A stretch of 64,000 nt of DNA from Mobula hypostoma (taxonomy: Eukaryota), in NCBI RefSeq assembly GCF_963921235.1, contig NC_086097.1, positions 20,090,001 to 20,154,000 on the forward strand, read 5' to 3'. Under the pieces are notes generated by a model. It made no database searches, was not told where the DNA came from, and was given only the letters and a program-made list of their open reading frames with translations. Below are positions 12,092 to 59,939 of the stretch, one piece after another. Position 1 is the first letter of the stretch. Every line of letters starts with the position of its first letter. The position numbers and the translations under genes were made by a program.

Positions 12092-13354
12092 CACACAGTA
12101 TTTGTTCATGGGATATGGATGTCTTGACCATGCACCATTTATTGTCCACCTCTGAGAAGCCAGTAAGGAGTTAATGATGTGTTTCTGGAGTCACACATTT
12201 CAACTACAAGGATATCAGTGAACTAGAATTGTTTTTGCAACATTCCAGTACTTTTATGATAAGTCAGATTAGTTTTATTTTTAATTCCAGATTAATATGT
12301 ACATCTTAATTTAAATTATTCTGTGGATATGGTGAAAGTGAATCCTAAACTAATTTTCTTGGATCAATGATCCAGAGCTCTGCTAATATCGTAACTCAAC
12401 CATTAGTCCGCCGTGTCACTCCAAAGCAGTGTTGTTCATTTTCCATGTATCGATAAGGAAGGTATATCCAATGTAAAGATTGAGCCAAAGGTGAAACCCC
12501 TAGCTTCAAGAAGTGATGGTGCCCAGGTGTAAAAGTTGTTGCATCCTTGCCGTTTGAGGAATAGGACAACTTAGGTTCTTCAGCTGGAGAAAAAACAGGA
12601 CTGGACGGATTCATTGGGAAAGCTGATCACATTTGAGATCCCCGTTGACCTCAAAGTAAACAAACCTCCCAGTTAGACAGGATGGGTTTGGTAACAACAG
12701 GTTTGAATGTTAGATGTAAGTCTCGGAAATAAAGCTAAAATGTTCTTCCCTGTGCCCTGCAGAAGGGTCTTGGCCAGAAATATTAACTGTATATTCATTT
12801 CCATAGACGCTGCCTGACCTGTTGTGTTCCTCCAGCATTTTATGACTATTGTTTTGGATTTCCAGTATCTCCAGAATCTCTTGTGTCTGAAATATCCATG
12901 AATACTTTTCTCAGGGAAGGTAGTTGCATCATAAACAGATCTCTATTTACTGATGGTGAGTGTGAAGAAAGAATAAGGAAAAACACCTTTAAAAATGGAG
13001 ATTTGCTATTCAGCTAGAAGAAAATATGTATAAAACAAATTTAGAGCAAAATGGCAACATTCAAACAGAAACTTCTCAAAATAATTAAATAACACAGAAT
13101 CATTACACTTAAATGACAATTGTTAATAGCTGTTCACCAGTTATATCCTCAATTGCAGAAAAATAATCCAGTATATAATTATTAACAAGTAGTCCTTGTA
13201 ATTATAGTTAATAATCATAAATAACTTACTTTGTTTAATATTGAGTTATTAATTTCAACAGAACTTTGTTAACACCAGATAACCAGTTTGCGTAATGCTT
13301 ATGATTTAATTTATACAAGTGCATACATAAACTAACAAGTCTAAATGGACTCAC

Positions 13355-13498
13355 ATCATCCAATTCATTTTCCAGGAAAACTTGTTTCTTCCTGAATTCT
13401 TTGACCCTGTTCAATTCTCCTTGAATTAGCTGCATTTCTTTCATCTTTTGCAACATTTTGTTTTGCAAATGCTCAGTTTGTTGGGTGTGGATTTCGAT
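13355..13498 (-). CDS. BBOF1: BBOF1 coding exon 4 (IEIHTQQ...RVKEFRKKQVFLENELDD)
   Basis: TTTCCACAG acceptor, GAT|GTGAGT donor, 144 nt; aligns to human ...IQVERELDD. Confidence 0.92.
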
Positions 13499-13862
13499 CT
13501 GTGGAAATGTAAGAGAAGGTTCAAGCAAAGTTGACTGCAATGCAGCTTTTCACTGAAAACACATTCATTATGTAGGCAGTTCCCCTATATTTATGGAGGA
13601 AATTTTATTTATGTATCTAATCATAGTAGTTCAACAACAAAAAGCATACAGTATATTTTATGTTTGCAGTACGATCACCAAATATGCAAAAACACTCCTG
13701 GTGAACTTAATATCAGAGTGAGCAATTGAGAAGTTAGAAAAAATCTTCCTTACAAAAAGAAATGTTGGACTCTGTACCAAGAAGCAATAATTGGTTGCTT
13801 AATAAACAAATGGAAAACTGATATCAGTCTTTCCTTTTCAAACAAATGGTATAAAATGATAT

Positions 13863-15842
13863 AAAATATGAAAGTTGTATGAAATGTATAGGAAACAGGG
13901 GGTAAATCAGGTGCTTGAGGAGTATAAGAAGTGCAAGAAAATACTTAAGAAAGAAATCAGGAGGGCTAAAAGAAGACATGAGGTTGCCTTGGCAGTCAAA
14001 GTGAAGGATAATCCAAAGAGCTTTTACAAGTATATTAAGAGCAAAAGGATTGTAAGGGATAAAATTGGTCCTCTTGAAGATCAGAGTGGTCGGCTTTGTG
14101 CGGAACCAGAGGAAATGGGGGAGATCTTAAATAGGTTTTTTTGCGTCTGTATTTACTAAGGAAGCTGGCATGAAATCTATGGAATTGAGAGAATCAAGTA
14201 GTGAGACCATGGAAACTGTACAGCTGTACAGATTAAAAAGGAGAGGTGCTTGCTGTCTTGAGGAAAATTAAAGTAGCTAAATCCCCGGGACCTGACAGAG
14301 TGTTCCCTCGGACCTTGGAGGAGGCTAGTGTTGAAATTGAGGGGGCCCTGGCAGAAATATTTAAAATGTCGCTGTCTACAGGTGAAGTGCCGGAGGATTG
14401 GAGAGTGGCTCATGTCGTTCCGTTGTTTAAAAAAAGATCAAAAAGTAATCCGGGAAATTATAGGCCGGTGAGTTTAACGTCAGTAGTAGGTAAGTTATTG
14501 GAGGGAGTACTAAGAGACAGAATCTACAAGCATTTGGATAAACAGGGGCTTATTAGGGAAAGTCAACATGGCTTTGTGCGTGGTAGGTCATGTTTGACCA
14601 ATCTGTTGGAGTTTTTCGAGGAGGTTACCAGGAAAGTGGATGAAGGGAAGGCAGTGGATATTGTCTACATGGACTTCAGTAAGGCCTTTGACAAGGTCCC
14701 ACATGGGAGGTTAGTTAGGAAAATTCAGTCACTAGGTATACATGGAGAGGTGGTAAATTGGATTAGACATTGGCTCGATGGAAGAAGCCAGAGAGTGGTG
14801 GTAGAGAATTGCTTCTCTGAGTGGAGGCCTGTGACTAGTGGTGTGCCACAGGGATCAGTGCTGGGTCCATTGTTATTTGTCATCTATATCAATGATCTGG
14901 ATGATAATGTGGTAAATTGGATCAGCAAGTTTGCTGATGATACAAAGATTGGAGGTGTAGTAGACAGTGAGGAAGGTTTTCAGAGCCTGCAGAGGGACTT
15001 GGACCAGCTGGAAAAATGGGCTGAAAAATGGCAGATGGAGTTTAATACTGACAAGTATGAGGTATTGCACGTTGGAAGGACAAACCAACGTAGAACATAC
15101 AGGGTTAATGGTAAGGCACTCAGGAGTGCAGTGGAACAGAGGGATCTGGGAATACAGATACAAAATTCCCTAAAAGTGTCGTCACAGGTAGATAGGGTCG
15201 TAAAGAGAGCTTTTGGTACATTGGCCTTTATTAATCGTAGTATTGAGTATAAGAGCTGGAATGTTATGATGAGGTTGTATAAGGCATTGGCGAGACCGAA
15301 TCTGGAATATTGTGTTCAGTTTTGGTCACCAAATTACATGTAGGATATAAATAAGGTTGAAAGAGTGCAGAGAAGGTTTACAAGGATGTTGCCGGGACTT
15401 GAGAAACTCAGTTACAGAGAAAGGTTGAATAGGTTAGGACTTTATTCCCTGGAGTGTAGAAGAATGAGGGGAGATTTGATAGAGGTATATAAAATTATGA
15501 TGGGTATAGATAGAGTGAATGCAAGCAGGCTTTTTCCACTGAGGCAAGGGGAGAAAAAAACCCGAGGACATGGGTTAAGGGTGAGGGGGGAAAAGTTTAA
15601 AGGGAACATTAGAGGGGGCTTCTTCACACAGAGAGTGGTGGGAGTATGGAATGAGCTGCCAGACAAGGTGGTAAATGTGGGTTCTTTTTTAACATTTAAG
15701 AATAAATTGGACAGATACATGGATGGGAGGTGTATGGAGGGATATGGTCCGTGTGCAGGTCAGTGGGACTAGGCAGAAAATGGTTCAGCACAGCCAAGAA
15801 GGGCCAAAAGGCCTGTTTCTGTGCTGTAGTTTCTATGGTTTC
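13863..15842 (+). mobile_element. Young 5'-truncated CR1 LINE (RT domain largely intact)
   Basis: 365-aa ORF with [43 protein letters not shown] tail; 13-bp TSD TATAAAATGATAT at 13850-13862 and 15843-15855. Confidence 0.96.
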
Positions 15843-16249: not shown

Positions 16250-18365
16250 TGGTAGCATAGTGGTTAGCACAACGCTTTACAGTACCAGTGACCCAGGGTT
16301 CAATTCCCACCGCTGCCTGTATGGAGTTTGTATGTTCTCCCCGTGACCACGTGGGTTTCCTCCCAGTTTCCTCCTACATTCCAAAGATGTACCAGTGAGT
16401 AGGTTAATTGGCTATTGAAAATTGTCCCATGATTAGGCTCGGATTATAGCAAATAATATCAAAGAGGATACTAAAAGCTTTTTCAAGTACATAAAGAGTA
16501 AAAGACAGGTGAGAGTTGATATAGGACCGATAGAAAATGATGCTGGAGAAATTGTAATGGGAGATAAGGAGATGGCGGAGGAACTGAACAAGTATTTTGC
16601 ATCAGTCTTCACTGAGGAAGACATCAGCAGTATACCGAACACTCAAGGGTAGCAGGGAAGAGAAGTATGCGCAGTCACAATTACGACAGAGAAAGTACTC
16701 AGGAAGCTGAATAGTCAAAAGGTAGATGAATCTCCCGGACCAGATGGAATGCACCCTTGTGTTCTGAAGGAAGTAGCTGTGGAGATTGTGGAGGCATTAG
16801 TGGTGATCTTTCAAAAGGCGATAGATTCTGGCATGGTTCCGGAGGACTGAAGGATTGCAAATGTCACTCCGCTATTTAAGAAGGGGGCAAGGAAGCAAAA
16901 AGGAAATTATAGACCTGTTAGCTTGACATCAGTGGTTGGGAAGTTGTTGGAGTTGATTGTCAAGGATGAGGTTACAGAGTACCTGGAGGTATATGACAAG
17001 ATAGGCAGAACTCAGCATGGATTCCTTAAAGGAAAATCCTGCCTGCCAAACCTATTACAATTTTTTGAGGAAATTACAAGTAGGCTAGACAAGGGAGATG
17101 TAGTGGATGTTGTATATTTGGATTTTCAGAAGGCCTTTGACAAGGTGCCACACATGAGGCTACTTAACAAGATAAGAGCGCATGGAATTACGAGAAAGTT
17201 ACATACGTGGATAGAGCGTTGGCTGATTGGCAAGAAACAGAGAGTGGAATAAAGGAATCCTATTCTGGTTGGCTGCCGGTTACCAGTGGTGTTCCACAGG
17301 GGTCCATGTTGGGGCCACTTCTTTTTACATTGTACATCAACGATTTGGATTATGGAATAGATGGCTTTGTGGCTAAGTTTGCTGACGATACGAAGATAGG
17401 TGGAGGGGCCGGTAGTGCTGAGGAAACGGAGAGTCTGCAGAGAGACTTGGATAGATTGGAAGAATGGACAAAGAAGTGGCAAATGAAATACAATGTTGGA
17501 AAGTGTATGGTTATGCACTTTGGCAGAAGAAATAAACGGGCAGACTATTATTTAAATAGGGAAAGAATTCAAAGTTCTGAGATGCAACGGGACATGGGAG
17601 TCCTCATACAGGATACCCTTAAAGTTAACCTCCAGGTTGAGTCAGTGGTGAAGAAGGCGAATGCAATGTTGGCATTCATTTCTAGAGGAATAGAGTATAG
17701 GGGCAGGGATGTGATGTTGAGGCTCTATAAGGCACTGGTGAGACCTCACTTGGAGTACTGTGGGCAGTTTTGGCCTCCTTATTTAAGAGAGGATGTGCTG
17801 ACGTTGGAGAGAGTACAGAGAAGATTCACTAGAATGATTCTGGGAATGAGAGGGTTAACATATGAGGAACATTTGTCCGTTCTTGGACTGTATTTCTTGG
17901 AGTTTAGAAGAATGAGGGGAGACCTCATAGAAATATTTCGAATGTTGAAAGGCATGGACAGAGTGGATATGGCAAAGTTGTTTCCCATGATGGGGGAGTC
18001 TAGTATGAGAGGGCATGACTTAAGGATTGAGGGGCGCCCATTCAGAACAGAAATGCGAAGAAATTTTTTTAGTCAGAGGGTGGTGAATCTATGGAATTTG
18101 TTGCCATGGGCAGCAGTGGAGGCCAAGTCACTGGATGTATTTAAGGCAGAGATTGATAGGTATCTGAGTAGCCAGGGCATCAAAGGTTATGGTGAGAAGG
18201 CTAAATGGGAGAATGGATCAGCTCATGATAAAATGGCGGAGCAGACTCGATGGGCCGAATGGCCAACTTCTGCTCCTTTGTCTTATGGTCTTATGGATTA
18301 AATCGGGGGATTGCTGTGCAGCGCAGCTTGAAGGACCTATTCTGTGCTGTATCTCAATAAATAAA
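16250..18365 (+). mobile_element. V-SINE/HE1-like SINE (16250-16446 and 18295-18365) split by a CR1 insertion
   Basis: A-box TAGCATAGTGG, B-box GGTTCAATTCC, V-core GGAGTTTGTATGTTCTCCCCGTG; SINE tail resumes after 18300. Confidence 0.8.
16447..18294 (+). mobile_element. CR1 LINE, 5' truncated
   Basis: RT ORFs 16923-17252 and 17207-18301; TCTTATGG tail; TSD GGATTA at 16441-16446 and 18295-18300. Confidence 0.95.
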
Positions 18366-19680
18366 CAAATTTACAAATTGTGGACACTTCCACAATTTCC
18401 TGTTGTGCTATCTGAAACCGAGTACTTCAGGTTTTTGAAAGTTTTGTTAGCACTTTATGCCTCTGAGCATACTTATATCTCAAATGTGTCCTTCACTTTG
18501 TTTCTGTTACTCTTAAAGAATGATTACATAGCATCACATAATGATACAGCACAAAAGGTTGTCATTTATTTGGAGGTACAGCACAGTAACAGGACCTCCT
18601 GGTTCAACAAGCCCACACTGCCCAGTTACACCTATGTGACCAATTAACCTTCTAATCTCTACATCTTTGAAATGTCGGAGGAAACTAGAGCCGGGACAAC
18701 GTACAAACTCCTTACAGACAGCGAAGGGAGTTGAACATGGGTTGCTGGAGCTATAACAGCGTTACACTAACTGCTACGCTATTGTGCTGTCCTCAAGATC
18801 AATCTTTAGGGCAAATATCCAATCCAATTAATCCCTGCGGTTTTACTCCATATCCTGGTAAATCTATAGATATATTTATTGGATTATTCTGCAAGTGATA
18901 CAACAGAATATAGATCAGTTATAGTTATGGACGGAGTACTGGCAGATGGAGTTTAATTTGGGAAAGTGTGAGGTTTTGCACTTTGGGAGGTCAAATATAA
19001 GGGGAAATTGGGACTGATGTACAGAGGCATCCTGGGGTCTATGTCCATAGATAGATAGCAGAGTCTTTTTTCCATGGTAGAAATACATGGAGGATATAGC
19101 TCTAATGAGAGAGGGGGACAGTTTAAAAGTGACCTGTGGATTGTTTCTTTACATGGAGTATAGTAGGTGCCTGGAACTCACTGCAATGATTGGTGCTGGA
19201 AGCAGACACAAAAGTGACCTTTAAGTGTATTTGGACAGGCCAATGAAATTGAACATAGAACGTAGGACGGTATAGCACAGTACAGGCCCTTCGGCCCATG
19301 ATGTTGTGCTGACCGTTTACTCTACTCTAAGATCAATCTAACCTTTACCTACCCCATAGCCCTCCATTTTTCACACTATTTGTTAATGATCTTAATGAAA
19401 GAATTGACGATTTTTGTGGCCAAGTTTGCCGACAATAAAAGATAGGTGGAGGGGCAAGTAATGTTGAGGAAGCAGTGAGACAGCATAAGGTCTTGGATAG
19501 ATTAGAAGAACTGGCAAAAAAACCAAACAGCTGGAGAAATTCAGCAGGTTGAATGGTGTCTGTGGAGGCAAAGAGATAGTTGAAGTTTCAGGGTGAGACT
19601 CTGCATCAGGGTTGAGTTTAGTCTGAAGTTATGTTCTTTACAAATTCCATAAGTACACAGGAAAAACGGCAAACACTCAC

Positions 19681-19746
19681 CATTTTCTTATTCTCATCAG
19701 CCGCTTGTTGCTTTTGATCAATTAACTTCTGTTGAAGTTGGTTAAT
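19681..19746 (-). CDS. BBOF1: BBOF1 coding exon 3 (INQLQQKLIDQKQQAADENKKM)
   Basis: TTTTACAG acceptor, ATG|GTGAGT donor, 66 nt, phase 0-0; coiled-coil segment aligning to human IEKLKQQLNETKEKAQEEKDKL. Confidence 0.88.
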
Positions 19747-20055
19747 CTGTAAAACACAAATTTATTTGATTATATTGACAAGAATCAGCTTTTTTTTAGG
19801 ATCAAAGCCAAATTACTAACAGCTTTTGATTCTCCTCTCATCCTGAATGCAAACACGAAACAGCATGACGCAGAGGTCTCAAAGTAAATTCTCTAACATT
19901 CTGCATGATGATCTAATTAGAATAAGAAAGACTATTCACAAACACTGGAAAAGCAACAGGCTATTCGGTCCATCAACCTTGGTCTGCCTTTCCATCACAT
20001 CAAATTCATTTACCCATCATTGGACCATATCGTTTGAAGTGAAATAGGAATTGAT

Positions 20056-22952
20056 ATGGGAGATGAGGGGAGTAATGAATTAAAAGTATTGTATATGAAT
20101 GCACAGAATATAAGAAATAAAGTGGATAAGCTTGAGGCACAGTTGGAAATTGGTAAGTATGTTGTGGGAATAACAGAGACATGGCTTCAAGTGGACAGGG
20201 CCTGGGAAATGAATATTCAAGGGTATACGTCCTATCGAAAGGTCAGACTGATGGGCAGAGGGGGTGAGGTGGCTCTGTTGGTGAGGAATGATATTCAGTC
20301 CCTTGTGAGGGGGGACATAGAATCAGGAGACATAGAGTCAGTATGGATAGAACTGAGAAATTCTAAGGGTAGAAAGACCCTAATGGGAGTTATCTACAGG
20401 CCCCCAAACAGTAGTCTGGATGTAGGGTGCAAGTTGAATCAAGAGTTAAAATTGGCATGTCGCAAAGGTAATGCTGCAGTTGCTATGGGGGATTTCAACA
20501 TGCAGGTAGACTGGAGGAATCAGGTTGGTGCTGGACCCTAAGAAAGGGAGTTTGTGGAGTCCCTCCGAGATGGATTCTTAGAGCAGCTTGTACTGGAGCC
20601 CACCAGAAAGAACGCAATCAATGAACCAGATTTGATCAGGGACCTCGAGGTAAAGGAGCCATTAGGAGGCAGAGACTATAACATGATAAGTTTTAATCTA
20701 CAATTTGAGAGGGAGAAGGGAAACTCGGAAGTGTCAGTATTACAGTTGAACAAAGGGAACTATGGTGCTATGAGGGAGGAGCTGGCCAAAGTTCAATGGA
20801 ACAATACCCTAGCAGGGATGACAGTGGAACAGCAATGGCAAGTGTTTTTGGGAATAATGCGGAAGGTGCAGGATCAGTTCATTCCAAAGAGGAAGAAAGA
20901 TCCTAAGGGGAGTAAGGGGAGGCCGTAGCTGACAAGGGAAGTGATGGACAGTATAAAAATAAAAGAGAAGTATAACATAGCAAAGACGAGTGGGAAGCCG
21001 GAGGATTGGGAAACTCTTAAAGAGCAACAGAAGGTAAGCAAAAAGGCTATATGTGGAGAAAAAATGAGGTATGAAGGTAAACTAGCCAGGAATATAAAGG
21101 AGGATAGTAAAAACTTCTTTAGATATGTGAAAAGGAAGAAAATAGTTAAGACCAAAATTGAGCCCTTGAAGACAGAAACGGGTGAATTTATTATGGGGAA
21201 CAAGGAAATGGCAGACGAGTTGAACAGGCACTTTGGATTTGTCTTCACTAGGGAAGACACAAACAATCTCCCAGATAAAAGAGTGGCCAAAGGAAATAGG
21301 ATAATTTCCTAGATGAGCTGAAGGAAATTTATATTAGGCAGGAAATGGTGTGAATAGATTGTTGGGTCTGAAGGCTGATAAGTCCCCGGGACCTGATGGT
21401 CTGCATCCCAGGGTACTTCAGAAATCGTGGACACATTGGTAATCATTTTCCAATGTTCTATAGATTCAGGATCAGTTCCTGTGGATTGGAGGGTGGATAA
21501 TGTTGTCCCTCTCTTCAAGAAGGGAGGAAGAGAGAAAACAGGGAATTATAGACCGGTTAGCCTGACTTCGGTGGTGGGAAAGATGCTGGAGTCAATTATA
21601 AAAGATGAAATTACGACACATCTGGATAGCAGTAACAGGATCGTTCCGAATCAGCATGGATTTATGAAGGGGAAATTGTGCTTGACTAATCTTCTGGAAT
21701 TTTTTTGAGGATGTAACTATGAAAATGGACAAGGGCGAGCCAGTGCATCCACCTGGACCTCTGTGTACCTGGACTCTCAGAAAGCCTTTGATAAAGTCCC
21801 ACATAGGAGATTAGTGGGCAAAATTAGGGCACATGGTATTGGAGGCAGAGTACTGACATGGATTGAAAATTGGCTGGCTGACAGAAAACAAAGAGTAGCG
21901 ATTAACGGCTCCCTTTCAGAATGGCAGGCAGTGACCAGTGGGGTACCGGAGGGTTCAGTGCTGGGACCGCAGCTGTTTACAATATATATTAGTGATTTAG
22001 ATGAGGGAATTAAAAGTAACATTAGCAAATTTGCCGATGACACAAAGCTGGGTGGCAAGTGTGAAATGTGAGGAGGATGTTATGAGAATGCAAGGTGACT
22101 TGGACAGGCTGGGTGAGTGGGCAGATGCATGGTAGATGCAGTTTAATGTGGATAAATGTGAGGTTATCCACTTTGGTGGTAAGAACAGGAAGGCAGATTA
22201 TTATCTAAATGGAGTCAAGTTAGGAAAAGGGGAAGTACAACAAGATCTAGGTGTTCTTGTACATCAGTCACTGAAAGCAAGCATGCAAGAAAGCTAATGG
22301 CATGCTGGCCTTCATAACAAGGGGAATTGAGTATAAGAGAAAAGAGGTCCTTCTGCAGCTGTACAGGGCCCTGGTGAGACCACACCTGGAGTACTGTGTG
22401 CAGTTTTGGTCTCCAAATTTGAGGAAGGACATTCTTGCTATTGAGGGAGTGCAGCGTAGGTTCACAAGGTTAATTGCCAGGATGGCGGGACTGTCATATG
22501 TCAAAAGATTGGAGCGACTGGGCTTGTATACTCTGGAATTTAGGAGGCTGAGAGGGGATCTTATTGAAACATATAAGATTATTAAGGGATTGGACACACT
22601 GGAGGCAGGAAGCATGTTCCCGCTGATGGGTGAGTCCAGAACCAGAGGCCACAGTTTAAGAATAAGGGGTAGGCCATTTAGAACGGAGTTGAGGAAAAAC
22701 TTTTTCACCCAGAGAGTGGTGGATATATGAGATAAAAAACTTTTTCACCCAGAGGCTGTGGAGGCCAAGTCACTGGATGCTTTCAAGAAAGAGATGGACA
22801 GAGCTCTTAAAGACAGTGGAATCAAAGGTTATGGGGATAAGGCAGGAACTGGATGCTGATTGTGGATGATCAGCCATGATCACAGTGAATAGCGGTGCTG
22901 GCTCGAAGGGCCAAATGGCCTACTCCTGCACCTGTTGTCTATTGTCTATTGT
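20056..22952 (+). mobile_element. CR1 LINE with nearly complete ORF2 (APE endonuclease plus RT), disrupted
   Basis: KVLYMNAQ, GITETWL, IYRPPN, MGDFN (APE); NYRPVSLTS and FADD (RT); multiple stops and frameshifts; TTGTCTA tail. Confidence 0.95.
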
Positions 22953-23985: not shown

Positions 23986-24569
23986 CTAAGTAGATAAACA
24001 AATATTTCTGAAGGAAATACTTTAAAAAGCTATTTGTTTACTAATTCCCCATTTCCAAAAAAAAACCTAGATTATTTCTGCATCAGGTAGAAAGAACATC
24101 ACTCATTACATCAAAGTTCAAAGTACATATACAGTATGTCACCATATACAGATTCATTTTCTTGTGGGCATTCACAGCAAATACAAAGAAACACAATAGA
24201 ATCAGTGAAAAACTGTACACAACAAACGGCCAAACAACCAATGTGCCAAACAACAAAAAAAAAGATTCATGATAGTCTCAGAATTCCTGGCAGACAGGAA
24301 TCCAGATTAAGTAACTGAGAATGCAGACAATTGAATTCCCACCTATTTATCATTCACAATGTATCCAAGTTCAAGTGGCAGAACTAACACTTCCTAAATT
24401 AAAGGGTTCTGCCCTTCTGACTGTATTTTGGCTGACAACTGTGATGTTTTGGTGCAATTTTGGGTGCTGGCAGGTGATTCCTATCTTCATAAACACAATA
24501 GCCATGATGAAATGGCGGAGCAGACTTGATGGGCCAAATGGCCTAATTCTGCTCCTATATCTTATGGCC

Positions 24570-24935
24570 TTAGATGCTGGAAATCCACAGAAACACACAC
24601 AAAATACTAGAGAAACGCAACATGTCTGGCACCATCTACGGAGGGGAATAAACAATCGACATTTCAGGCCGAGATCCTTCATCAAGACCGGAAAGAAAGG
24701 GGAAGAAGCCAGAATAAGGAGGGGGAAAGACAGAAGTTGGCAGGTGAAAGGTGAAGCCAGGTGAAGGGGAAGGTGGGTGGGTGGGAGAGGTGGGAATGAA
24801 GTGAGAAGTTGGGAGGTGATTGGTGAAAAAGGTGGACTGAAGAAGAGGGAATGCTAAAGAGTATAAGAGTGGAAGTGGCAGCAGAGAGAGGAGACAGGCA
24901 GGTGAGGTGACAGAGAAGGAGTAAGAGGAAAGCTG
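24570..24935 (-). mobile_element. Penelope-like terminal-repeat fragment with hammerhead-like motif
   Basis: Shared family motif AGATGCTGGAAATCC..CACACACAAAAT followed by a purine-rich tract; ribozyme-like core at 24653-24690. Penelope assignment inferred. Confidence 0.65.
24653..24690 (-). ncRNA. Degenerate minimal type I hammerhead ribozyme motif
   Basis: CGGTC-TTGATGA-AGG ATCTCGG CCT-GAAA-TGTC-GATTG; C3 of the core is U. Confidence 0.55.
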
Positions 24936-25407: not shown

Positions 25408-25486
25408 GGTGAAGTGTAGTTAAATTCAGAGTTGCTGTACTGGAAGTTAATTCGCTTTCAGTCGGTCACGCACCAGGCCTGCAGCC

Positions 25487-29040: not shown

Positions 29041-29194
29041 ATGTGGATCAGTACCATATTACATAATGTTTATACACTGAGGTATTAGTCTTTGATACGT
29101 CTCCATGCTCACGTTACTTCTACTTATTGATAGCAATATTTATTTTATTTTAAACTTGTGAAATGAGGACTGAAAATCTTCCAATATGGAAAAC

Positions 29195-30258
29195 GCAGTG
29201 GCCAATTGGCAGGAGGCAAAGAGTGGGAATAAAGGGAGCCTTATCTGACTGGCTGCCGGTGACTAGTGATGTTCCACAGGGGTCTGTGTTGGGATCAATT
29301 CTTTTCAGTGACCTGGATGATGGAATTGATGGCTTTGTGGCAAAGTTTGTAGATGATATGAAGATAGGTGGAGGGGCAGGTAGTTTTGAGGAAGAAGACT
29401 GGCTACAGAAGGACTTAGACAGAGAATGGGCAAAAGAGTGGCAGATAGAATACAGTGTCAGGAAGTGTATGGTCATGTACTTAAGGTAGAAGAAATATAA
29501 GGGTAGACTATTTTCTAAATGGGGGAAAAAAAATTCAAAAATCTGAGGTGCATAGGACCTTGTGTAGTATTCCCTAAACATTACTTTGCAGGTTGAGTCT
29601 GTGGTGAAGAACGCAAATGTGATATTAGCATTCATTTCAAGAAAACTAGAACATAAAAGCAAAGATGTAATGCTGGGGCTGCATAAAGCACTGGTGAGGT
29701 CTCACTTGAAGTATTGTGAGCAGTTTTGGGCCCCTTATCTAAGAAAGGATGTGCTGACGTTGGAGAGAATTCAGAGGAGGTTCACAAAAGTGATTCCAAG
29801 ATTGAAAGGATTGTCATATCAACAGCATTTGATGGCTCTGGGCCTGTACTCACTAGAATTCAGAAGGTATGAGGAGAGACCTCTGAAACCTATTGAACAT
29901 TGAAAGGCCTCAGTAGAGAGGCTGAGAGGCTGCTTCCTACAGTGGGAGAGTCTACGACCAGAGGACACAACCCGAGAGTATAGGGGTGTCCTTTTTTAGA
30001 ATGGAGATGAAGAGAGATTTCTTTAGCCAGAGAGTGGTGAATCTGTGGAATTTGTTGCCACAGGTGGTTGTGGAGGCCAAGTTTTTGCGTATGTTTAAGG
30101 CAGAAGTTGATAGATCCTTGATTAGTCAGGGTATGAAGAGATACAGGGAGAAGGCAGGAGATTGGGGGCTGAGAGGAACAATGGATCAGCAATAATGAAA
30201 AGGCAGAGCAGATTCAATGGACCATATGGCCTAGCTCTGCTCCATATCTAATGGTCCA
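29195..30258 (+). mobile_element. Degraded CR1 3' half
   Basis: ORFs 29163-29489, 29586-29903 and 29986-30195 with VPQGSVLG and QFWAPYLRKD. Confidence 0.9.
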
Positions 30259-32509: not shown

Positions 32510-32822
32510 TGCTCCCCCTCATTTCATCTCTACCATCTCCTGTCAGGTTCTTTCTTCTTCAGCTCTTTACTTCTTCCATCTATCACCTCCCAGTTTCTCA
32601 CTTCATCCTCCTTTCTCCACCCCCCCCCCACCCACCCACCTGCTTTCTCCCATCAACTACCAGCTTGTACTCCTTCCACTCACCCAAACTTCTTATTTCG
32701 GCTTCTTCCCCTTCCTTTCCAGTCCTGATGAAGGGTGTTGGCCTGAAACATTGTTTATTCCTCTCTCTATAGATGCTGCCTGACCTGCTGAGTTCCTCCA
32801 GCATTTTGTGTGTGTGTTGCAT
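32510..32822 (+). mobile_element. Penelope-like terminal fragment inserted in a degraded CR1 (about 32120-33215)
   Basis: Pyrimidine tract, CCAGTCCTGATGAAGGG..GAAAC, then ATAGATGCTGCCTGACCTGCTGAGTTCCTCCAGCATTTTGTGTG. Confidence 0.7.
32720..32757 (+). ncRNA. Minimal hammerhead ribozyme motif with intact CUGAUGA/GAAA core and decayed 3' arm
   Basis: CAGTC-CTGATGA-AGGG TGTTGG CCT-GAAA-CATT-GTTTA. Confidence 0.55.
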
Positions 32823-42930: not shown

Positions 42931-43817
42931 GTCGGTACCAAAATTCATATATTTTGTTTCAATGGAGCTGAAATGTATCTGTAATAGGGATTAATGATGA
43001 AGTATCAACTGAAATTGAAAGAGTTCTTTGTGATTCATGTACAAGTTTAGTGAAGGGTGTAATAACAATGTTGCATAACGATAATCTCTAAATTTCATCG
43101 TTGCTTAAGCTATTTGCGTTGTTTAAATTACTTGTGATACATTAGGTTTTGCTTCTGTAACGGGCATGAAACCACTCCTTTTAAATGACTTGTTGGTTAA
43201 AATTTGTTTTCTGATCTTGCTTAAATTGAGTTCTAATGCATTGTTAGCGGAATTGTATCAAGGGGAGCATTAGTTCCTTATACTTAAGCTTATTTTAAGA
43301 TCTAGCAGTTGGGTGAGCCACAGGAAAACATTCTTCTCCTGTCCTGTTCTACCATCGTGGACCTGATTTGAGATATAAACTTCGTGCCTTGTTTTGCAAA
43401 TTGCAGGCTGAGGTCTTCTGACCTAATTGTTTCTTTGATGTTGTCTTGCCATGGCCGTGTGGGTGGCCTTTTAGCTCTCCATCCTCATTTTTCCTGCATC
43501 CATTTTGTTTTTCATCTGGTTCCCGGAGCAATTCTGTTTAAAAGATTTTTTTAAAAATTAGCTCTGTTTCTCACATGTACATTGAAACATGAAGTAAAAT
43601 ACCTTGTTTGCATCAGCGATTAGCACTGGCTGAAGCAAGTGTTAACATGCTTCTGGCGCCAACATAGCATGCCCACAACTTGCCCTTACTAAACTGTATA
43701 ACTTTGGAATATGGGAGGAAACCAGAGCACCTGGAGGAAACCCACCACAGTTATGGGGAACACACACAAAATGCTGGAGGAACCCAGCAGGCCAGGCAGC
43801 ATCTATGGAAAAGAGTA

Positions 43818-43851
43818 CAGTTGACATTTTGGGCCGAGACCCTTCAGCAGG
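43818..43851 (-). ncRNA. Degenerate hammerhead motif in a Penelope-like fragment nested in a V-SINE (about 43555-43935)
   Basis: CTGCTGA-AGGG TCTCGG CCC-AAAA-TGTC-AACTG; perfect stem II, core substitutions. Confidence 0.5.
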
Positions 43852-44892
43852 AAGGCTGACTCCTTACAGTCGTGGTCAAAGTTGAACCCCAATTGTTGGT
43901 GTTGTAAAGTGTTAAGTTAGTTGCTGTGCTACTGTGCCAGTGCCTTCTGATACAGTGTAAGATTTGTTACTTCCCTATTACCAATTCTCATGTGGCTGTT
44001 CTTGTCACTCACAGTGCTGGACACATCCTTTCATGTAGCAATGTAAACATCAAGCTCTGGAACTGGTTGGTTAATTGATTGTATAATATTTTCCTTGAGA
44101 AGAATTAATTGGTGACACTTCATTCATGGACTTCTTTGCCTTTGTGCATCTGACCTGTCTTTCACCAGTCACTCATTTGTCTTTGGTGGTGGGGAAATTC
44201 CAGCAACTTGAAACAAAAACCCTACCCCGTTCTTTGGCTTCAAGTAAGGATGTGTGAGAAGAAGCAGTGGAAAGAAATAATGAGCAGTGAATGAAAAATA
44301 ATCATTCAAAGACACCTCTAGTTCCACGCCCAGGTCTATTCCCATCTCTCCTAATTCCTCTACTAACAATTTTGGGAGGATCTTTTTCTGAACTCCAGGC
44401 TTGGATAGGTTGAAATTCCCTCCCTTTGGAAGTATCTTAGACCAGATTTATTTCAAATCAGTCCAGTTTAGATTTGTTTAATTACCACATGTACATCAAA
44501 ACATACAATGAAATGCATCACCCGTGTTAATAACCAATACAACCTAGGGATGTGCTGGGAGCGGCCGGCCCGCAAGTGTGGCCACACATTCTAGCACCAA
44601 CATAGCATGCTCACAATGTTCAGCATAACAATACAAGCAACAGCAACAACAAAACACAGAACAGCAGCAACAAATCCACGCAGCAAACCAAACCCCACTC
44701 CTCCCACACACACAATCTTTCAACCCCGGGCCTCTGACTACCAGTGGACTCCCAGACTCGTAACATCAGGCCTCTGACTTCCCTAGCGGACTCACCGAAT
44801 CGGCACTTCGACCCTCCATATAAACTCTATTCCCTGATCACTGATTGCACAACCACCACGAACCGAACCAGATTGTTCACAACTTGGTGTGT

Positions 44893-48127: not shown

Positions 48128-48436
48128 GTAGGCACGTGGCCAAGTGGTTAAGGCATTCGACTAGCAATCTGAAGGTTGTGAGTTCGAGCCCCAGCCGAGG
48201 CAGCGTGTTCTGTCCTTGAGCAAGGCACTTAATCACACAGTGCTCTGCAATGACACTGGTGCCAAGCTTTATCGACCTTGCCCTTCCCTTGGACAACATC
48301 GGTGTCATGGAGAGGGGAGACTTGCAGCATGGGCCACTGCTGGTCTTCCATACAACCTTGCCCAGGCCTGCACCCTGGAGAGTGAAGACTTTCCAGGCGC
48401 AAGTCCATGGTCTCCCAAGACTAACGGATGCCTTTA
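48128..48436 (+). mobile_element. tRNA-derived SINE with CORE-like middle and RTE-like 3' end, in a TA-rich microsatellite
   Basis: A-box TGGCCAAGTGG, B-box GTTCGAGCC, GTCCTTGAGCAAGGCACTTAA, 3' CCATGGTCTCCCAAGACTAACGGATGCC. Confidence 0.8.
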
Positions 48437-50042: not shown

Positions 50043-51625
50043 CAGTGGTGCTAGAAAGTTTGTGACTTAAATTTATGCAGAAATTTTCTCTATTTCTGCA
50101 TAAATATGACGTAAAATGTGATCAGTTATTTAAGTCCTAAAACTAGATAAAGAGAACCAAATTAAATAATTAACACAAAAACATTATACTTATTTATTCA
50201 TTGAGGAAAAAAAATCTAATATTACCGTTTGTACATGTATTTGTTGGAAAAAGTAGGCGAACCTTTGGGGTGTTGCCTTCTACAAGAGCTGTTTGGAGTC
50301 GGGTGTTTTAATCAATGAGATGAGATTGGAGGTGTGGGTTGTAGAGGTGTCCTGCTCTATATAAAGAAAAAGATACAGTCAGGTTACTGATAAAGCCAGC
50401 TGTTCTCAAGAAAGATCTGTTTATGTGCACCATGCTTCATTCAAAACAACTTTCAGAGGCCATTGGAAGAAGAATTATAGAAATGCATGAAGCCGGAAAA
50501 GGCTACAAAAATATTTCTAAAGACCTGAGTGTTCATCAGTTCACAGTAAGAGAAATTGTCCACAAATGGTACAAACTCAGTACAGTTGCTACTCTCCCTA
50601 GGAGTGGGCATCCTGCAAAGATCACAGCAAAAGCACAATGTGCAATGCTGAAGGAGATGAAAAAGAACCCAAAGGTAACAGCAAAAGACCGTCAGAAATC
50701 TCTAGAACTTGTAAAAGTCTCTGTTCATGTGTCCACTATAAGAAAAACACTGAACAAGAATGGTGTTCATGGAAGGACACCACAACGGAAACCACTGCTC
50801 TCCAAAAACAAACATTGTTGCTTGTCTCGAGTTTGCAAAATACCACCTAGATATTCTACAATGCTTCTGAGACAATGTTCTGTGGACAGATTGAGACAAA
50901 AGTTGAACTTTTTGGCAGAAATGCACATTGCTATATTTGGAGGAAAAAGGATCAACACCAAAACCTCATCCCAACTGTGAAGCATGGTGGAAGGATCTCC
51001 ATGGCTTGGGGCTGCTTTGCTGCCTCAGGGTCTGGACAACTTGCAATCGTTGACAGAACAAGGGATTCAAAATTGTATCATGGCAATTTACAGGAGAATG
51101 TCAGGGTAGCAGTCTGTCACCTGAAGCTTAATAGAAGTTGGATAATGCAACAAGACAATGACCTGAAAGACCAGAGTAAATCAACAACAGAATGGTCTAA
51201 AAAGAAGAATATTTGTGTTTTGAATGGCCAAGTCAAAGTCTTGACCTTAATCCTATAGAAATGCTGTAGCAGGATCTGAAGCAGTTCGTGCAAGGAAGCC
51301 CACCGATATCCCAGAGTGGAAGCGGTTGTGCAAGTAGAAATGGCCTATAATTCCTCGTAGCCGATGTGCAGGACTGATCAACAGTTATCGGAAATGTTGG
51401 GTTGAAGTTATTGCTGTACAAGGGGATCACACCAGTTACTGAAAGCAAAGGTTTACATACTTTTTCCAACAAATGCACATAATATTGGATCATTTTTCTC
51501 AATAAATATATGAACAAGTATAATGTTTTTAAGTTATTTATTTGGGTTCTCTTTTTCTAGTTTTAGGACTTACATGAAGTTGTGATCACATTTTAGGTCA
51601 TATTGATGAAAAAATAGAATGCCTA
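50043..51625 (+). mobile_element. Tc1 transposon, defective, right TIR truncated
   Basis: TA|CAGTGGTGCTAGAAAGTTTGTG; GKGYKNISK, LPRSGHPAK, VKHGG, QQDND; right end runs directly into CR1 sequence. Confidence 0.92.
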
Positions 51626-53027: not shown

Positions 53028-53217
53028 GACATGAAAATCTGCAGATGCTGGAAATCCAAGCAACACACACAAAATGCTAGAGGAACTCAGCAGGCCAAAC
53101 AACATCTATGGGAGGGGAAAAAAGTAAATTGTCGATATTTCAGGCCAAGATCCTTCATGAAGAGTTTCAGCTCGAAACGTCAACTGTTGCGTTCCTCCAG
53201 CATCTTGCGTGTATTGC
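53028..53217. mobile_element. Penelope-like head-to-head insert with 14-bp TSD
   Basis: TSD TGAGAGTGATAATA at 53014-53027 and 53218-53231; polarity switches at CTTCATGAAG (53153-53162). Confidence 0.8.
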
Positions 53218-53681
53218 TGAGAGTGATAATAAATCAGCCATGATTGGATGGTGGACTAGATTAAATGGCCTGATTAACCTAATTCTACTCCTTTGTCTTG
53301 TGGTCTAGCGATCTCTTCCCCTTTACCCTAAATCTTTATCCTCTGGTTTTATTTACCACTGATATAGGATAAAGTTTACTGTGGTCTCCCCTAGCTATAT
53401 CTCTAATTTTTTATAGGTCAATCTATAGAATGCCTTCACATTCGGTAGAATTTTGTCTGCCTGACATTTCTTCTGACCCCTCTTAACGTTTCTAATTTCC
53501 TTTTTAAGCACCTCCCTATACTTTTTATGCTCTTAACAGGCCTCCTCTGTCAGTTGTTCCTATACCTGATGTAGGCTTCTCTTTTCCTCTTTCATGGGGG
53601 TGGGGGGGAATATCAGAGGTAAGGTTTTTACACAGTGATCAGTGCATGGAAAGCATGCAAGGGGTAGAGGCAGATACATTA

Positions 53682-54915: not shown

Positions 54916-56441
54916 CAGTGCCTATAAAAAGTATTCACCCCCCGCCCCTGGAAGTTTTCATGTTCTATTGTTTTACAACACCGAATCACAGTGGATTTAA
55001 TTTGGCTTTTTTGACACTGATCAACGGAAAAAGTCTCTTTTGTGTCAGGGTGAAAACAGATCTGTACAAAGTGATCTAAACTACTTGCAAATATAAAACA
55101 AAATAATTGATTATATAAGTATTCACCCCCTTCAAGTCAGTGTTTAGTAGATGGCACTTTTAGCAGCAATACAGCTCTGTCAGATTGTATGGGGATCAAG
55201 AGTGAATCCTTTTCAAGTTCAGTCACAAATTCTCAATTGGATTAAGGTCTGGACTCTGACTTGGCAACTCTAGGACATTGCTTTTTTTTAAGCCATTCCT
55301 GTGCAGATTTGGCTTTGTGTTTAGAGTCATTGTCTTGCTGGAAAACAAATCTCCCAAGTCGCAGTTCTCTTGCAGACCGCATCAGGTTTTCCTCCAGGAT
55401 TTCTCTGTATTTTGCTGCATTCATTTTACCCTCTACCTTCACAAGCCTTCCAGGGCCTGCTGCAGTGAAACATCCCCACAGCATGATGCAGCCACCACCG
55501 TGCTTCACATTAGGGATGGTGTGTTTCTGATAATGTGCAGCATTTGGCTTACGCCAAACATAGCATTTAGTCTGATAGCTAAAAAGCTCAATTTTGATGC
55601 TATCAGACCTTAGAACCTCCTTCTAGCTGACCTTAGAGTCTCCCACATGCCTGCTGACAAACTCTAACTGAGATTTCATTTGAGTTTTCTTTTAAACAGT
55701 GGTTTTCTCTTTGCCATTCTTCCATAAAGCTGGTGAAGCACCCGGGCAACAGTTGTTGTATGCACAGTCTCTCCCATCTCAGACACCGAAGCTGGTAACT
55801 CCTCCAGCGATGTCATGGGTCTCTTGGTGACCTCCCTCACGAGTCCCCTTCTTGCATGGTCATTCAGTTTCTGAAAGTGGCCTGCTCTAGGCAGATTTAC
55901 AGCTGTGCCATATTCTTTCCATTTATTGATCATTGATTTATCTATACGATATTCAGTGACTTGGAAATGTTCTTGTATCCATCTCCTGACTTGTGGTTTT
56001 CAGTAACATTTTCGTGGAGTTGCTTGGAGTGTTCTTTTGTCTTTATGGTGTAGTTTTTGACAGGATACTGACTCACCAGCAGTTGGACCTTCCAGACAGA
56101 TACAGATGTATTTTTACTGCAATCAATTGAAACACCTTGTCTGCACACAGGTCTCCATTTAACTAATAACATGACTTCTAAGACAAATTGTCTACACCAG
56201 TGATGATTTAGTATGTTTTATTAAAGCAGGGTAAATACTTATACAATCAATTATTTTGTGTTTTATATTTGTAATTAATTTGGATCACTTTGTAGAGATC
56301 TATTTTCACTTTAACATGAAAGAGTCTTTTTCTTTTGATCAGTGTTTTAAAAAAGGCAAATTAATCCCACTGTGATTCAAAGTTGTAGAACAATAAAACA
56401 TGAAAACTTCCAAGGGAGGTGAATACTTTTCATGGGCTCTG
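54916..56441 (-). mobile_element. Passport-like Tc1 transposon, defective
   Basis: TA|CAGTGCCTATAAAAAGTATTCACC...[76 protein letters not shown]. Confidence 0.92.
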
Positions 56442-57167
56442 TACTTGCAAGTAAATGCTCCCAATACCCCTTTGATAATGGAATTGGTCTTACCCAAATT
56501 TAAGACTTTTATTACTATCCTTTTCTGTAATTGCTTTAAGTTATACAGATTTATCGTTTATTTTTGTTTCAGATTTATAACTTGTACAGTATTTTAATTT
56601 TATTTTGTTCTAGAAAAAATACAAAGATAAGATCAGAAAATTACTAAAGTTTCATAAACATGGATTTCTGCAGATGCAGAAAGGGTCTCCGCCCTGAAAC
56701 ATTAACTGCTCATTCCTTTCCACAGATGCTGTCTGACTTGCTGAGTTCCACCAGCATTTTGTGTGCATGCTAGATTGCTGAAGTTTCTTTTGGAAAATGC
56801 AACTTCCAATCATGCAGAGGCCCCAGTCTTAAGTACTCCCACTTTCCTCTCCACATGTAATAATTAAGGGACTTTTAATTATTGGTTTGACAGTGAAAAA
56901 GGAAGAATTTTCTAAGAGCTAAACCAGGAAATGTGTATACAACAAGAGTGATTTATCAATTAGCTGAGTTGGTCTCTCAGCAACCTTATGAAACCTGTTA
57001 TTTGCCTACAAAATCTAGACCTACGTGTATAGGGAACTTAGTAATTTGCTTTAGTCCAAATGGCCCAGTGAGCCAAATGGCCTCTATTTCCAAAGTATGT
57101 TAGAAAAGGAAGATTTCTATCAGCGTTTTAGTATGGAAATGTGACTCTCATTGCATGCTCTTTATAG

Positions 57168-57256
57168 GTCACTTGTACAGTGCCAATGAAAACACTGTCG
57201 GAATCCTGGACTTGGGAGGTGCTTCCACACAGATCACATTCCTTCCTCAGACTGAG
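57168..57256 (+). CDS. ENTPD5: ENTPD5 coding exon 6 with ACR4 ([18 protein letters not shown])
   Basis: TTTATAG acceptor, GAG|GTAAGA donor, 89 nt; DLGGASTQ motif. Confidence 0.96.
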
Positions 57257-59939
57257 GTAAGAAAAATATCAAGGACATGAATCTCAACCAGAAACTACAC
57301 GCGTTGAATCTACCATTTAATATAGTCCTGTTTTAATTACTTCATTCTCCCATCGTCCAACCTGAGTGACAAATATATCTGGTGTGATGGTAGTTATTTT
57401 TAGTTGCTGAAATGTATACCACCGGCATTCATAGAACATTACAGCACAGTACAGACTCTTTTGTCCATGATGTTGTGCCAATCCTTAAACCTACTATAAG
57501 ATTAATATAACCCCCCCCCCCCAGGTTCTTGTGGGCAGGTGACAAAGTATTTCAACAGAAATACGAAAGAGCCATTTAGCCTATGGAGCCACTAGTCCTA
57601 GTCCATAAATCATGTTTGACTTGTGGCTTAACTCCATTTACCAGGCCTTGCCTTATCTTCCACATTGTCTGGTTAACCAAAGATCATTGTTAATCTGAGA
57701 TTGAAAGGTACCTAAGGCTTAGCCATTTATAAAAGAGAGTTATGGACTTCTACCACCCTCTAAACGTGTTTCCCAATTTTACTACTGAAAGGCCTGGCCC
57801 TAATTTTTAGACATTTCCTTTGGTCCTGGATTTTCCAATAATTGGAACTGGATTCTCTGTATAATACTGCCTGTTTATTTTCTTTTTGCTTGACCTGTTA
57901 GTCATGAGATTTTCCAGATATAACTTGTGGATATCCTTGTATAGGTCTGGTAAATCTATGCTACACATTCCAAGTTCAAAATATCCTTCCTTAAGGTATT
58001 TTGCTCATGTTATCACCTAACTACTACTTAATCTGTGTTAGATTACTTCTATTCCTTTATATTCTGGTCCTCTGTATATAATGGTGACATGCCATTAACT
58101 TTAATTATTTTCTGTACCTTTCCTAGTTAATTAAATGTCATGAGTCTGAGCTCTAAATTTACTCAGATTTACAGTAATCTCTTTATCACTTCTTTCTTCA
58201 TTAATATCCAAAGTAGACAGCATCCTGCTACAGAGCTTGCAGTTCTCCTTGTTTTACTGATCAATCTTTATCATTGCCCTCACAAATCCACATAGTAGTA
58301 AACCTGTATATTGTGTCTGTTGACTAGAGCAGCTTTACATTTCTGCATTCTGTATCCCAGTCGGCTCTCCTTGCTCAAAGTAATCCCATTCTGATCCTGC
58401 ACATATACTAGGTATGACTTTGGTCTTAAGTAGCTGAAAATTCCTTCCACTTTCACATAGCATAAGTACAAAGTGCATTTGTTATCAAAGTATATATACT
58501 ATATACAACCTTGAGATTTGTCTTCTCACCGGCAGCCACAAAACAAAGAAACTCAATAGAGCCTATTAAAGAAACCAATACAACAAAGACCATCAAACAC
58601 TCAATGTGCGAGGGGAAAAAAGAACAAATCGTGCAAATAATAAAAAAGTGGACAAATGGCACACACAACATGAACTGCAGAGTCCCTGAAAAAGAGTCCA
58701 CAGCCACACAGCCAGTTCAGCGCTGAGGCAAGTGAAATTCACAGAGTAGTGAGTTGAACGCTGGTTCATCCTTTGCCCTTGGCCTTGATATTTTCAATCT
58801 GGCATGGCTTTTAAATCAGTTCATTTTTCACTCATCGGCCCAGGCCCCACCTCTTTGATCTAGCCCCAAGTCCACTCCAGCAATGGCCGCCGCGGCCGTA
58901 CCTTCAACCCTTGAGAGTCCAGTTCGCTGAAGCCTTTGGGGTACCACAAAAATGTCAGGTTGTACAGACGGTTCAAAAGCACAAGTCTCAAAGAGAAATT
59001 ACAGGCTGTGGATTGCAGTGATCGTAATCCAGAAAAAGTGGAATTGATAGAATGTCCCCAATTTCCATTTCAGCTCAATGACGTTCCCCCCCCTGCCCCC
59101 CCAAACGATTGGAGGGATACAAGTTGGAGCCATCAATTGTAGGTGTGCTCATCCAGTCAGTCTTGGTGTCCACTAACACCCACATTCTATTTGGTCATTC
59201 AACCCATTCTGCTATCTTATCTGATTTATACCTGTAGTTTTGTACAATTAGAGACAACAAGTAAAATTTTAGGCATATACCATTGCTAAATGGGAGACTG
59301 GCCATGACATTATATGTCCTTAGAGGTGACAGATTGTGAAATAAACTTTTCATCAGCTTTACCAATGTTCAGTAATTAGGTTTCATGCCCAAGTTTCTGA
59401 ACAGGGCCTTAAACACACAGCTTCCTCAGTTTTAGATGACAGTGCTAACAACTGAATAATCTTCTGTTAACCTAGCAGAAGGCTTGATTTCATTTCCCTG
59501 TAAAAATAACTCTCCCATCAGTTCAAATCGCAATAACTTCTTTAGATGTCAAATAATTCCATCTTTACCACATTCACTCAATATCAAATCCTAATTTTTG
59601 TTTTAATTCCTTATCTTGGTCTTATCACTGTAGCATCCTGTATTTGTGACTCAAGGGTCTCAGCCCAAAACATTGACTATTTTCATTTCCATAGATGCTG
59701 CCAGATCTGCTGAGTTCCTCCAGCATTGATTTTGTGTGTGTGTGTGTGTCTCTGTCTATCTGTCTTGCACACCTTCATGGTTGCCCAAAGGGCCTGTTCT
59801 TGTGCTGTATTGTCTTTAGTAGTCTATGCTGTTGGACATCAGTTCAGTTCAGAAAAGTATGTTGACGATAAATGATCAATTTGTGAAAATAATACACATA
59901 TACTGACATGAGAGTATTAGGAAGGGAGCTTAAATAGCC

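Follow-up and report, generated by a model that had tools for sequence, protein, structure and literature searches.

Decayed ends of an abundant Penelope-like element with a minimal type I hammerhead motif in the genome of Mobula hypostoma

Background

The 64,000-nucleotide stretch of Mobula hypostoma DNA analysed here (hereafter the window; RefSeq assembly GCF_963921235.1, contig NC_086097.1, positions 20,090,001 to 20,154,000, forward strand) contains dispersed copies of a repeat with a hammerhead-like motif, and raises the question of which element they come from and what part the motif plays in that element's spread. An initial annotation, made by eye, read the motif as a minimal hammerhead ribozyme and the repeat as either a Penelope terminus or a small non-autonomous, retrozyme-like family. 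Minimal hammerheads are on record in the pLTRs of metazoan Penelope-like elements (PLEs), including Xena, Poseidon and Neptune of fish (Cervera & De la Pena 2014, PMC4209133), and the role of PLE hammerheads is still termed unclear (PMC8557442).

Results

Using a profile built exclusively from copies lying outside the window, we detected 11 copies within it, with E values from 4e-72 to 4e-5; the reversed window gave no match, and neither did any of ten locally shuffled windows. All ten copies that had been located by eye were recovered, together with one that had been missed (31755-32102):

12754-12885, plus strand: short pLTR copy starting at the motif's upstream edge, with tail and decayed core (E 7e-25)
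19524-19610, minus strand: short, heavily decayed pLTR copy (E 4e-5)
24567-24933, minus strand: long 3'-UTR/pLTR copy of the old subfamily, with tail and decayed core (E 5e-57)
31265-31659, minus strand: long, tail-bearing pLTR copy with deletion of the stem II 5' strand and the bulk of the hammerhead core (E 4e-60)
31755-32102, minus strand: additional pLTR copy, decayed, with internal deletion (E 1.5e-28)
32534-32832, plus strand: long pLTR copy of the same old subfamily, without tail (E 4e-72)
32720-32752, plus strand: the window's best-kept motif, made up of stem I 5' strand (32720-32724), CUGAUGA (32725-32731), extra A, stem II (32733-32744) and GAAAC (32745-32749)
43749-43852, minus strand: short pLTR copy starting at the motif's upstream edge, with two core changes (E 1e-31)
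53030-53158, minus strand: arm of a head-to-head pair, with tail (E 2e-29)
53157-53224, plus strand: tail-less arm of the same pair, with internal deletion and a GAG/CTC stem II at 53162-53173 (E 1e-6)
56681-56765, plus strand: short decayed pLTR copy (E 3e-22)
59653-59741, plus strand: short pLTR copy starting inside the core (E 2e-21)

As the initial annotation had noted, no motif in the window is perfect: every one of the 11 is damaged, and the complete core of CUGANGA, GAAA and UH triplet occurs in none of them. The best-kept motif (32720, plus strand) has an intact stem I 5' strand, CUGAUGA, stem II and GAAA, and has lost its GUC triplet and the stem I 3' strand; the copy at 53157 (plus strand) retains GAAAC-GUC and lacks the start of the core; in the copy whose motif lies near 31357 (minus strand) a deletion has removed most of the core. 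The remaining copies are decayed mainly at CpG sites. None of the window copies should cleave, and they have no likely function of their own. A tblastn search of the window with the element ORF gave no match, and the Rfam hammerhead models matched neither the window nor eight loci that include intact motifs, at E values up to 10.

Genome-wide, the consensus that had been reconstructed by eye proved correct, since a pattern that combines the core and stem II with the palindrome and the 3' strand of stem I matches exactly at 2,170 sites, against none in the reversed control. Exact complete motifs, with CUGANGA, GAAA and the UH triplet, number 54,062 (control, 0), and a relaxed pattern (N7 and 11.1 = C or T; core and stem II only) finds 101,142. 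The motif consists of a 5-bp helix I, CUGANGA, one extra A, a 4-bp helix II, GAAA and a loop-less ACGU palindrome, and thus has the hallmarks of a minimal type I hammerhead: a helix I of 4-5 bp, an extra base after A9 and a palindromic 15.2-16.2. As modelled, the palindrome can make helix III only with a second copy of the motif. The predicted minimum-energy folds of both monomer and dimer pair the core with the cleavage triplet, which is an inactive fold.

Comparing subfamilies, we observed 87-95% identity within the motif and 54-66% just upstream of it, the exception being the two closest subfamilies, which are 86% identical upstream. The downstream body is also fairly conserved (79-82%; 100% for the closest pair), so that some of the conservation of the motif may stem from protein binding rather than catalysis. 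Changes at the level of source copies sit at sites that the fold tolerates, namely N7, loop II, U/C at 2.5 opposite G and C/U at 11.1 opposite G. Position 11.1 is C in the older subfamilies and U in 36 of 54 scored copies of the youngest, including all three full-length young copies; U11.1 still pairs. In all subfamilies the core is immediately preceded by a pyrimidine tract with AG as its last two letters.

The GAG/CTC stem II at 53162-53173 had been read as a compensatory change. Its letters are as described; the interpretation does not hold. Double changes at the pair 10.2-11.2, the one pair tested, exceed independence 2.66-fold (112 against 42 expected), yet non-partner control positions are enriched almost as strongly (127 against 54.5, 2.33-fold; p=0.35 between pair and control). 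There is thus no true covariation at this pair, between subfamilies the stems show only one-sided changes that keep the pairing, and the GAG/CTC copy is a product of decay.

The Penelope inference, and the link to an RT/GIY-YIG frame that was proposed as its check, both stand: upstream, the repeat runs into a GIY-YIG coding sequence, and whole elements with RT and GIY-YIG bear the motif in their pLTRs. The copy L082 is complete, with a pLTR, a 1,043-codon frame encoding RT, a CX4CXXC linker and GIY-YIG, and a second pLTR; it is flanked by a 12-bp target duplication and carries the motif in both pLTRs (at 1288 and 4801, same strand, 3.5 kb apart). Frames of 1,043 codons occur in five of 135 scored matches. 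Within the L082 protein, RVT_1 (residues 555-670, E 6e-5) and GIY-YIG (residues 919-975, E 0.002) score below the Pfam gathering thresholds, while the GIY-YIG of an endonuclease fragment, L050, lies above it (23.2 bits against 22.6). The ORF also contains YIDD and, at residues 883-891, the CX4CXXC linker. Among 8,000 scored candidates, 947 homologues were found, the best named one being from a bamboo shark (71%); a PDB sequence search matched no solved structure. The direct repeats that form the partial tandem of pLTRs span 720 bp in L082, 271 bp in L081 and only 43 bp in L083. From its RT and C-terminal GIY-YIG in one ORF, tandem pLTRs, 5' truncation and tail, the source is an endonuclease-bearing (EN+) PLE. 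A CX2-5CXXC linker between RT and endonuclease marks Neptune and Nematis (PMC8557442), and the linker here fits these clades, Neptune being the likelier because, in a set of 35 animal genomes (31 from vertebrates), the PLEs form four groups that include Neptune and lack Nematis. The window copies are thus very probably old, dead, 5'-truncated pLTR insertions of an endonuclease-positive PLE with a Neptune/Nematis-type linker, whose source pLTR encodes a minimal type I hammerhead.

Insertion ends were scored in the first 80 of 64,413 exact matches, all in the first 4.2 Mb of one contig. The predicted cut is crossed by 74 of these 80 young copies and only two 5' ends fall on it (+28..+30; p=0.42), so that we reject the hammerhead cut as the source of the 5' ends. 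The ends are instead enriched 4.1-fold at the motif's upstream edge (-4..+8), an interval set from an earlier sample of other copies and then tested on these 80; the earlier sample was in part confounded by the divergence of subfamilies immediately 5' of the motif. In 50 of the 80 copies the 5' end lies inside the motif or at most 110 nt upstream of the core, and 24 of these 50 have an inverted partner. Among contigs of four other sequencing runs, those that align with a young copy only in part depart from it at 1284-1285 and 1318-1320, which are the motif's borders.

The 3' ends are bimodal, near +85..+100 and +127..+135, and the resulting tail of about 35 nt is present in 34 of 80 copies. 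All 36 head-to-head pairs that were scored carry it on one arm and lack it on the other. Where two copies lie less than 1 kb apart, they are head-to-head in ten cases, same-strand in two and tail-to-tail in none. Were the inverted arm the result of a simple fold-back, the tail-less arm should lie nested within the other; this origin was rejected, given that the tail-less arm of several pairs reaches further 5' (L032, L068, L078, L102/L103); on our reading of the pair table, two separate primings fit better.

Discussion

Like the hammerheads described in PMC4209133, the motif is of type I, with a short helix I, one additional base between A9 and 10.1 and a palindromic 15.2-16.2 that lacks loop III, and it sits in both pLTRs and occurs mostly as dispersed single copies. 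Its helix II is shorter than that of the Schistosoma families (4 bp against 7-8 bp), and the youngest subfamily has U11.1 where that paper gives G10.1-C11.1 as highly conserved. The same paper counts about 4,000 motifs in coelacanth and 9,000 in Xenopus, against 54,062 here, although the counting methods differ. Its supplements, as far as searched, contain no shark or ray term. In the literature searched we found nothing on point for Penelope hammerheads in sharks, although supplementary files may bear on prior description, and nothing on hammerheads with G10.1 and U11.1. Like the EN+ PLEs of PMC8557442 and PMC3846280 (Craig et al. 2021; Arkhipova et al. 2013), the element has partial tandem pLTRs, target duplications, a CX2-5CXXC linker, adjacent inverted 5'-truncated copies and a 30-40-bp tail at one end; there the tail is described as optional or often one-sided, whereas here it follows a strict one-arm rule.

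The closest functional comparison is with PAc, the Poseidon element of Anolis carolinensis (Frangieh et al. 2024, PMC11167929), whose hammerhead reportedly cuts only with protein and is dispensable for insertion in vitro. PAc likewise has two end points about 35 nt apart, with the hammerhead just upstream of both, and its main template is uncleaved RNA, as would be the case here. It is a Poseidon-clade element with an ORF that begins within the hammerhead, whereas our element has the CX4CXXC linker and its likely start ATG 166 nt after the first C of the core. If the anole element is a guide, the RT/GIY-YIG protein would nick target DNA and reverse transcription would begin internally on the RNA, at either of two positions a short way 3' of the hammerhead; every copy would consequently hold that end and many little else. 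The hammerhead would be weak alone, would depend on a second copy and, probably, on the protein of the element, and would mostly leave the copied RNA uncut; its self-cleavage as a dimer is presumed by analogy with the literature. Tentatively, and as a possibility to which we give rather less than even weight, we hypothesize that head-to-head insertions arise through an asymmetric protein dimer, one target strand being primed at the distal start and the other at the proximal one, which would yield the strict one-tail rule. The template would be uncleaved RNA, on which copying would halt some four times more often at the upstream edge of the hammerhead, either because the RNA starts there or because the new cDNA snaps into the hammerhead rod fold. 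In that case the hammerhead would serve as a signal, structural or gated by protein, instead of producing the template ends, and the family would be a natural large-n readout of Penelope integration.

Other explanations have to be set against this model. The hammerhead could process the element RNA in vivo, motifs of a tandem transcript dimerising to free a unit-length or circular RNA that is the true template, a model put forward in PMC4209133. The preservation of the motif over four subfamilies with fold-compatible changes only, and the two same-strand motifs of L082, agree with it; the copies that run across the cut without enrichment of ends there do not, and nor do the starts of the three full-length copies, at about -167, -618 and +57 of the upstream pLTR rather than +29. 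In the anole element, moreover, catalytic mutants show normal insertion and the site has no RNA read ends (PMC11167929). We consider in vivo processing unlikely, stressing that these observations only weaken it because re-ligated or circular RNA would leave no end mark. Less probable still is that the motif of the youngest subfamily is a catalytically dead relic, retained as a protein-binding or splice-acceptor signal. The fixation of U11.1 in the full-length young copies, the rod-like inactive fold predicted as the minimum and the pyrimidine tract and AG before the core, which recall the D. virilis intron ending at helix I (PMC4209133), would suit such a relic; however, no subfamily departs from the catalytic letters, U11.1 keeps its pairing (G-U, or A-U with the extra A) and complete motifs exceed fifty thousand.

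We regard as highly improbable the remaining proposal, that short hammerhead units form a non-autonomous, retrozyme-like family spreading by itself via cleaved circular RNA. Many copies are indeed only about 95-130 nt long, start near the motif and have target duplications of 7-14 bp, and animal non-LTR retrozymes, which share the type I hammerhead and a derivation from PLE pLTRs, are reported from one cartilaginous fish (Li et al., bioRxiv 10.64898/2026.07.22.740005). Those retrozymes are tandem non-coding repeats, whereas the copies here are dispersed truncations of a coding element, forming a continuous 5'-truncation series into the GIY-YIG ORF. No tandem arrays of non-coding hammerhead units were found among these dispersed copies, same-strand neighbours within 1 kb are rare (2/99 and 0/99 intervals in two match lists), and the 5' ends of short copies are scattered and not at the cut. 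The retrozyme-like alternative of the initial annotation accordingly fails.

Conclusions

The repeats of the window are the decayed ends of a very abundant Penelope-like element, with a hammerhead of a type already described for the class. In itself the finding is ordinary, minimal hammerheads in the Penelope pLTRs of fish having been in print since 2014. Its value lies in the material, one genome with young subfamilies, several complete ORFs and upwards of 50,000 intact motifs, which is suited to asking whether the ribozyme shapes the template and whether the two reverse transcription start sites work as a fixed pair.

A complete Penelope-like element

The copies of the repeat share a common 3' end and are frayed on the 5' side, and the longer ones extend into a GIY-YIG domain, one fragment scoring above the Pfam gathering score and another below it. 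A search with the GIY-YIG protein gave 234,226 first-look genome candidates; 135 were scored, of which five lie in open frames of 1,043 codons, and the anatomy of the whole element was read from three of these five loci. In L082, one of three full-length young copies elsewhere in the genome (L081-L083), a 720-bp upstream terminal repeat (pLTR) is followed by the ORF and then by the downstream pLTR; each pLTR carries the motif, and the target duplication measures 12 bp. The protein encoded from the ATG at 1454 matches RVT_1 (E 6e-5) and GIY-YIG (E 0.002), both below gathering scores, and also has YIDD and a CX4CXXC linker. Linkers of this type are given as a mark of the Neptune and Nematis clades in the sections of PMC8557442 consulted, and the linker found here is of that kind. 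Among the candidates scored, the closest named protein homologue is from a bamboo shark (71% identity), which makes a cartilaginous fish the likely host. No coding remnant of the element was found within the window.

The initial annotation had read the repeat as a ribozyme-bearing Penelope terminus or, alternatively, as a small retrozyme-like family. The former reading is supported by the copies that run into GIY-YIG and by a whole RT and GIY-YIG element carrying the motif in both pLTRs. The retrozyme alternative, under the definition in the consulted part of bioRxiv 10.64898/2026.07.22.740005, fails, since the copies lack the tandem layout and are continuous with the ORF. At two loci (L057, 1159-1289, and L126) ORF sequence seems, by eye, to pass straight into the pLTR, which points to template jumps or internal deletions.

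Copies in the window and in the genome

A profile made from copies outside the window (20090001-20154000 of its contig, in a 3.48-Gb assembly) detected 11 within it; the reversed window and each of 10 shuffled versions gave no hit. All ten positions named initially were recovered, together with an additional copy at 31755-32102 on the minus strand. The consensus drawn by eye was also right: core, stem II, palindrome and the 3' strand of stem I gave 2,170 exact genome matches (control 0). When N7 and 11.1 may each be C or T, the genome contains 54,062 matches to the complete motif (control 0) and 101,142 to core plus stem II alone. Every window copy has lost at least one required letter, as had been noted. 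An Rfam scan gave no hammerhead match in the window or in eight loci, some with intact motifs; we therefore infer that the Rfam models require helix III.

The window is otherwise rich in LINE and transposon fragments:

14237-15772, 16851-18301, 20038-22730 and 29150-30250: diverged LINE fragments with RT and endonuclease-like frames, presumably CR1-like
50468-51513 with 61027-62045; 37501-38743; 54942-56419; 62571-63929: long inverted repeats beside transposase-like frames, which we take to be Tc1/mariner-like
48135-48197, plus strand: weak tRNA-like match (25.2 bits, below the gathering score of 29), probably a SINE head

Structure and conservation of the motif

The proposed type I topology is borne out: the motif is a minimal hammerhead with a 5-bp helix I, CUGANGA, one extra A, a 4-bp helix II, GAAA and the palindrome. 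C15.2 adjoins G16.2 with no loop between them, so that pairing of the ACGU palindrome requires a second copy. Cervera & De la Pena list the same traits for the motifs of PLEs, report such motifs from the fish elements Xena, Poseidon and Neptune, and describe their cleavage as weak and restricted to dimers (PMC4209133, sections consulted).

Among four subfamilies, one of them a single copy, the 38-nt motif is 87-95% identical, the 35 nt upstream 54-66% (86% for the closest pair) and the 14 nt downstream 43-79%. The body, the pLTR part farther downstream, is itself 79-100% identical, and the motif is therefore not alone in being conserved. Subfamilies differ at N7, loop II, 2.5 and 11.1, with the pairs kept. 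The youngest subfamily, to which L081-L083 and most young copies belong, combines C at N7 with U at 11.1; 33 of 54 scored copies carry both. In all subfamilies a pyrimidine tract ending in AG directly precedes the core (window 32695-32724; L082 1255-1287), which looks like a splice acceptor; in D. virilis, according to the same part of PMC4209133, an intron ends at helix I.

A compensatory reading had been offered for GAG/CTC in stem II of the copy at 53162. At pair 10.2-11.2 the genome holds 101,142 unchanged motifs; 2,640 and 1,615 have one or the other position changed, and 112 have both, 2.66 times as many as independence predicts. In a non-partner control (2,087 single, 127 double) the ratio is 2.33, and for this one pair the two excesses do not differ in genome counts (Fisher p=0.35). 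An excess of this kind would be expected from mixed copy ages, and the copy at 53162 represents decay. Apart from covariation, the original interpretation is supported.

Copy ends and the RNA template

With +1 assigned to the C that opens CUGA, cleavage is predicted between +28 and +29. Ends were scored on the first 80 of 64,413 exact genome matches to a body 31-mer (+48..+78), all within the first 4.2 Mb of one contig; they represent young subfamilies, the window copies being older. The 3' ends form two groups, near +85..+100 and near +127..+135, matching the two internal reverse-transcription start sites that define the tail, an extra 3' segment of about 35 nt, in PAc, the anole Poseidon element (PMC11167929, in part). 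The predicted cut is crossed by 74 of the 80 copies, 5' ends are not enriched there (two of 80 at +28..+30, p=0.42), and in the upstream pLTR the starting points of three full-length copies are at about -167, -618 and +57. The copied RNA was therefore mostly uncut, as also in the anole work (same source), although re-ligated RNA would look identical. The 5' ends are 4.1-fold enriched at the motif's upstream edge, -4..+8 (15 of 48 ends within -104..+47, p=4e-5; L084-L163), an interval fixed beforehand on a different, partly confounded sample; such ends occur both with an inverted partner (8/24) and without (7/24). Transcription start, a splice site or snap-back of new cDNA could produce this enrichment.

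Minimum-energy predictions for the monomer and the cofolded dimer alike pair the core with the cleavage triplet, and C7 strengthens this predicted inactive fold. Both the fold and U11.1, present in 36 of 54 young copies, count against function of the motif. The view that the ribozyme processes element RNA in vivo is weakened, and it is possible that the motif of the youngest subfamily is a catalytically dead relic.

Head-to-head pairs

Neighbours within 1 kb were head-to-head in 10 cases, tail-to-tail in none and same-strand in two on one list of 100, and in seven, none and none on a second, overlapping list; an inverted partner accompanies 24 of 50 short copies. The tail is on exactly one arm, that is, one copy of the pair, in all 36 scored head-to-head pairs (L003-L155 and window 53030-53224): 20/20 from 3-kb loci, 15/15 from 80 stretches, and the window pair. 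If the arms were independent, 49% of pairs would be expected to show this (P about 6e-12 for all 36). The junction is shown in 25 pairs, the other 11 being assigned from orientation and distance below 3 kb. The count leaves out duplicate loci (L001, L004, L006, L035, L075, L100), four pairs with the partner end too near an edge (L114, L145, L150, L158) and four with the partner body outside the stretch. L002, L004 and L006, on one contig (C50), share flanks at 93-97% identity and are a local segmental duplication, counted once among pairs. Head-to-head insertion may involve two primings, one per target strand and one at each start site.

That inverted pLTRs may carry a tail on one side, as an optional feature, is already published (PMC3846280, PMC8557442); the strict one-tail rule was not found stated in the literature searched, including the consulted sections of both. 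Further sources consulted were PMC6155905, PMC6765202, PMC2377424 and PMC8969392. We found no paper naming this family in sharks or rays, in a search that took in some of the supplements. Minimal hammerheads in fish PLEs are already known from the portion of PMC4209133 consulted, and the present family is a further case.
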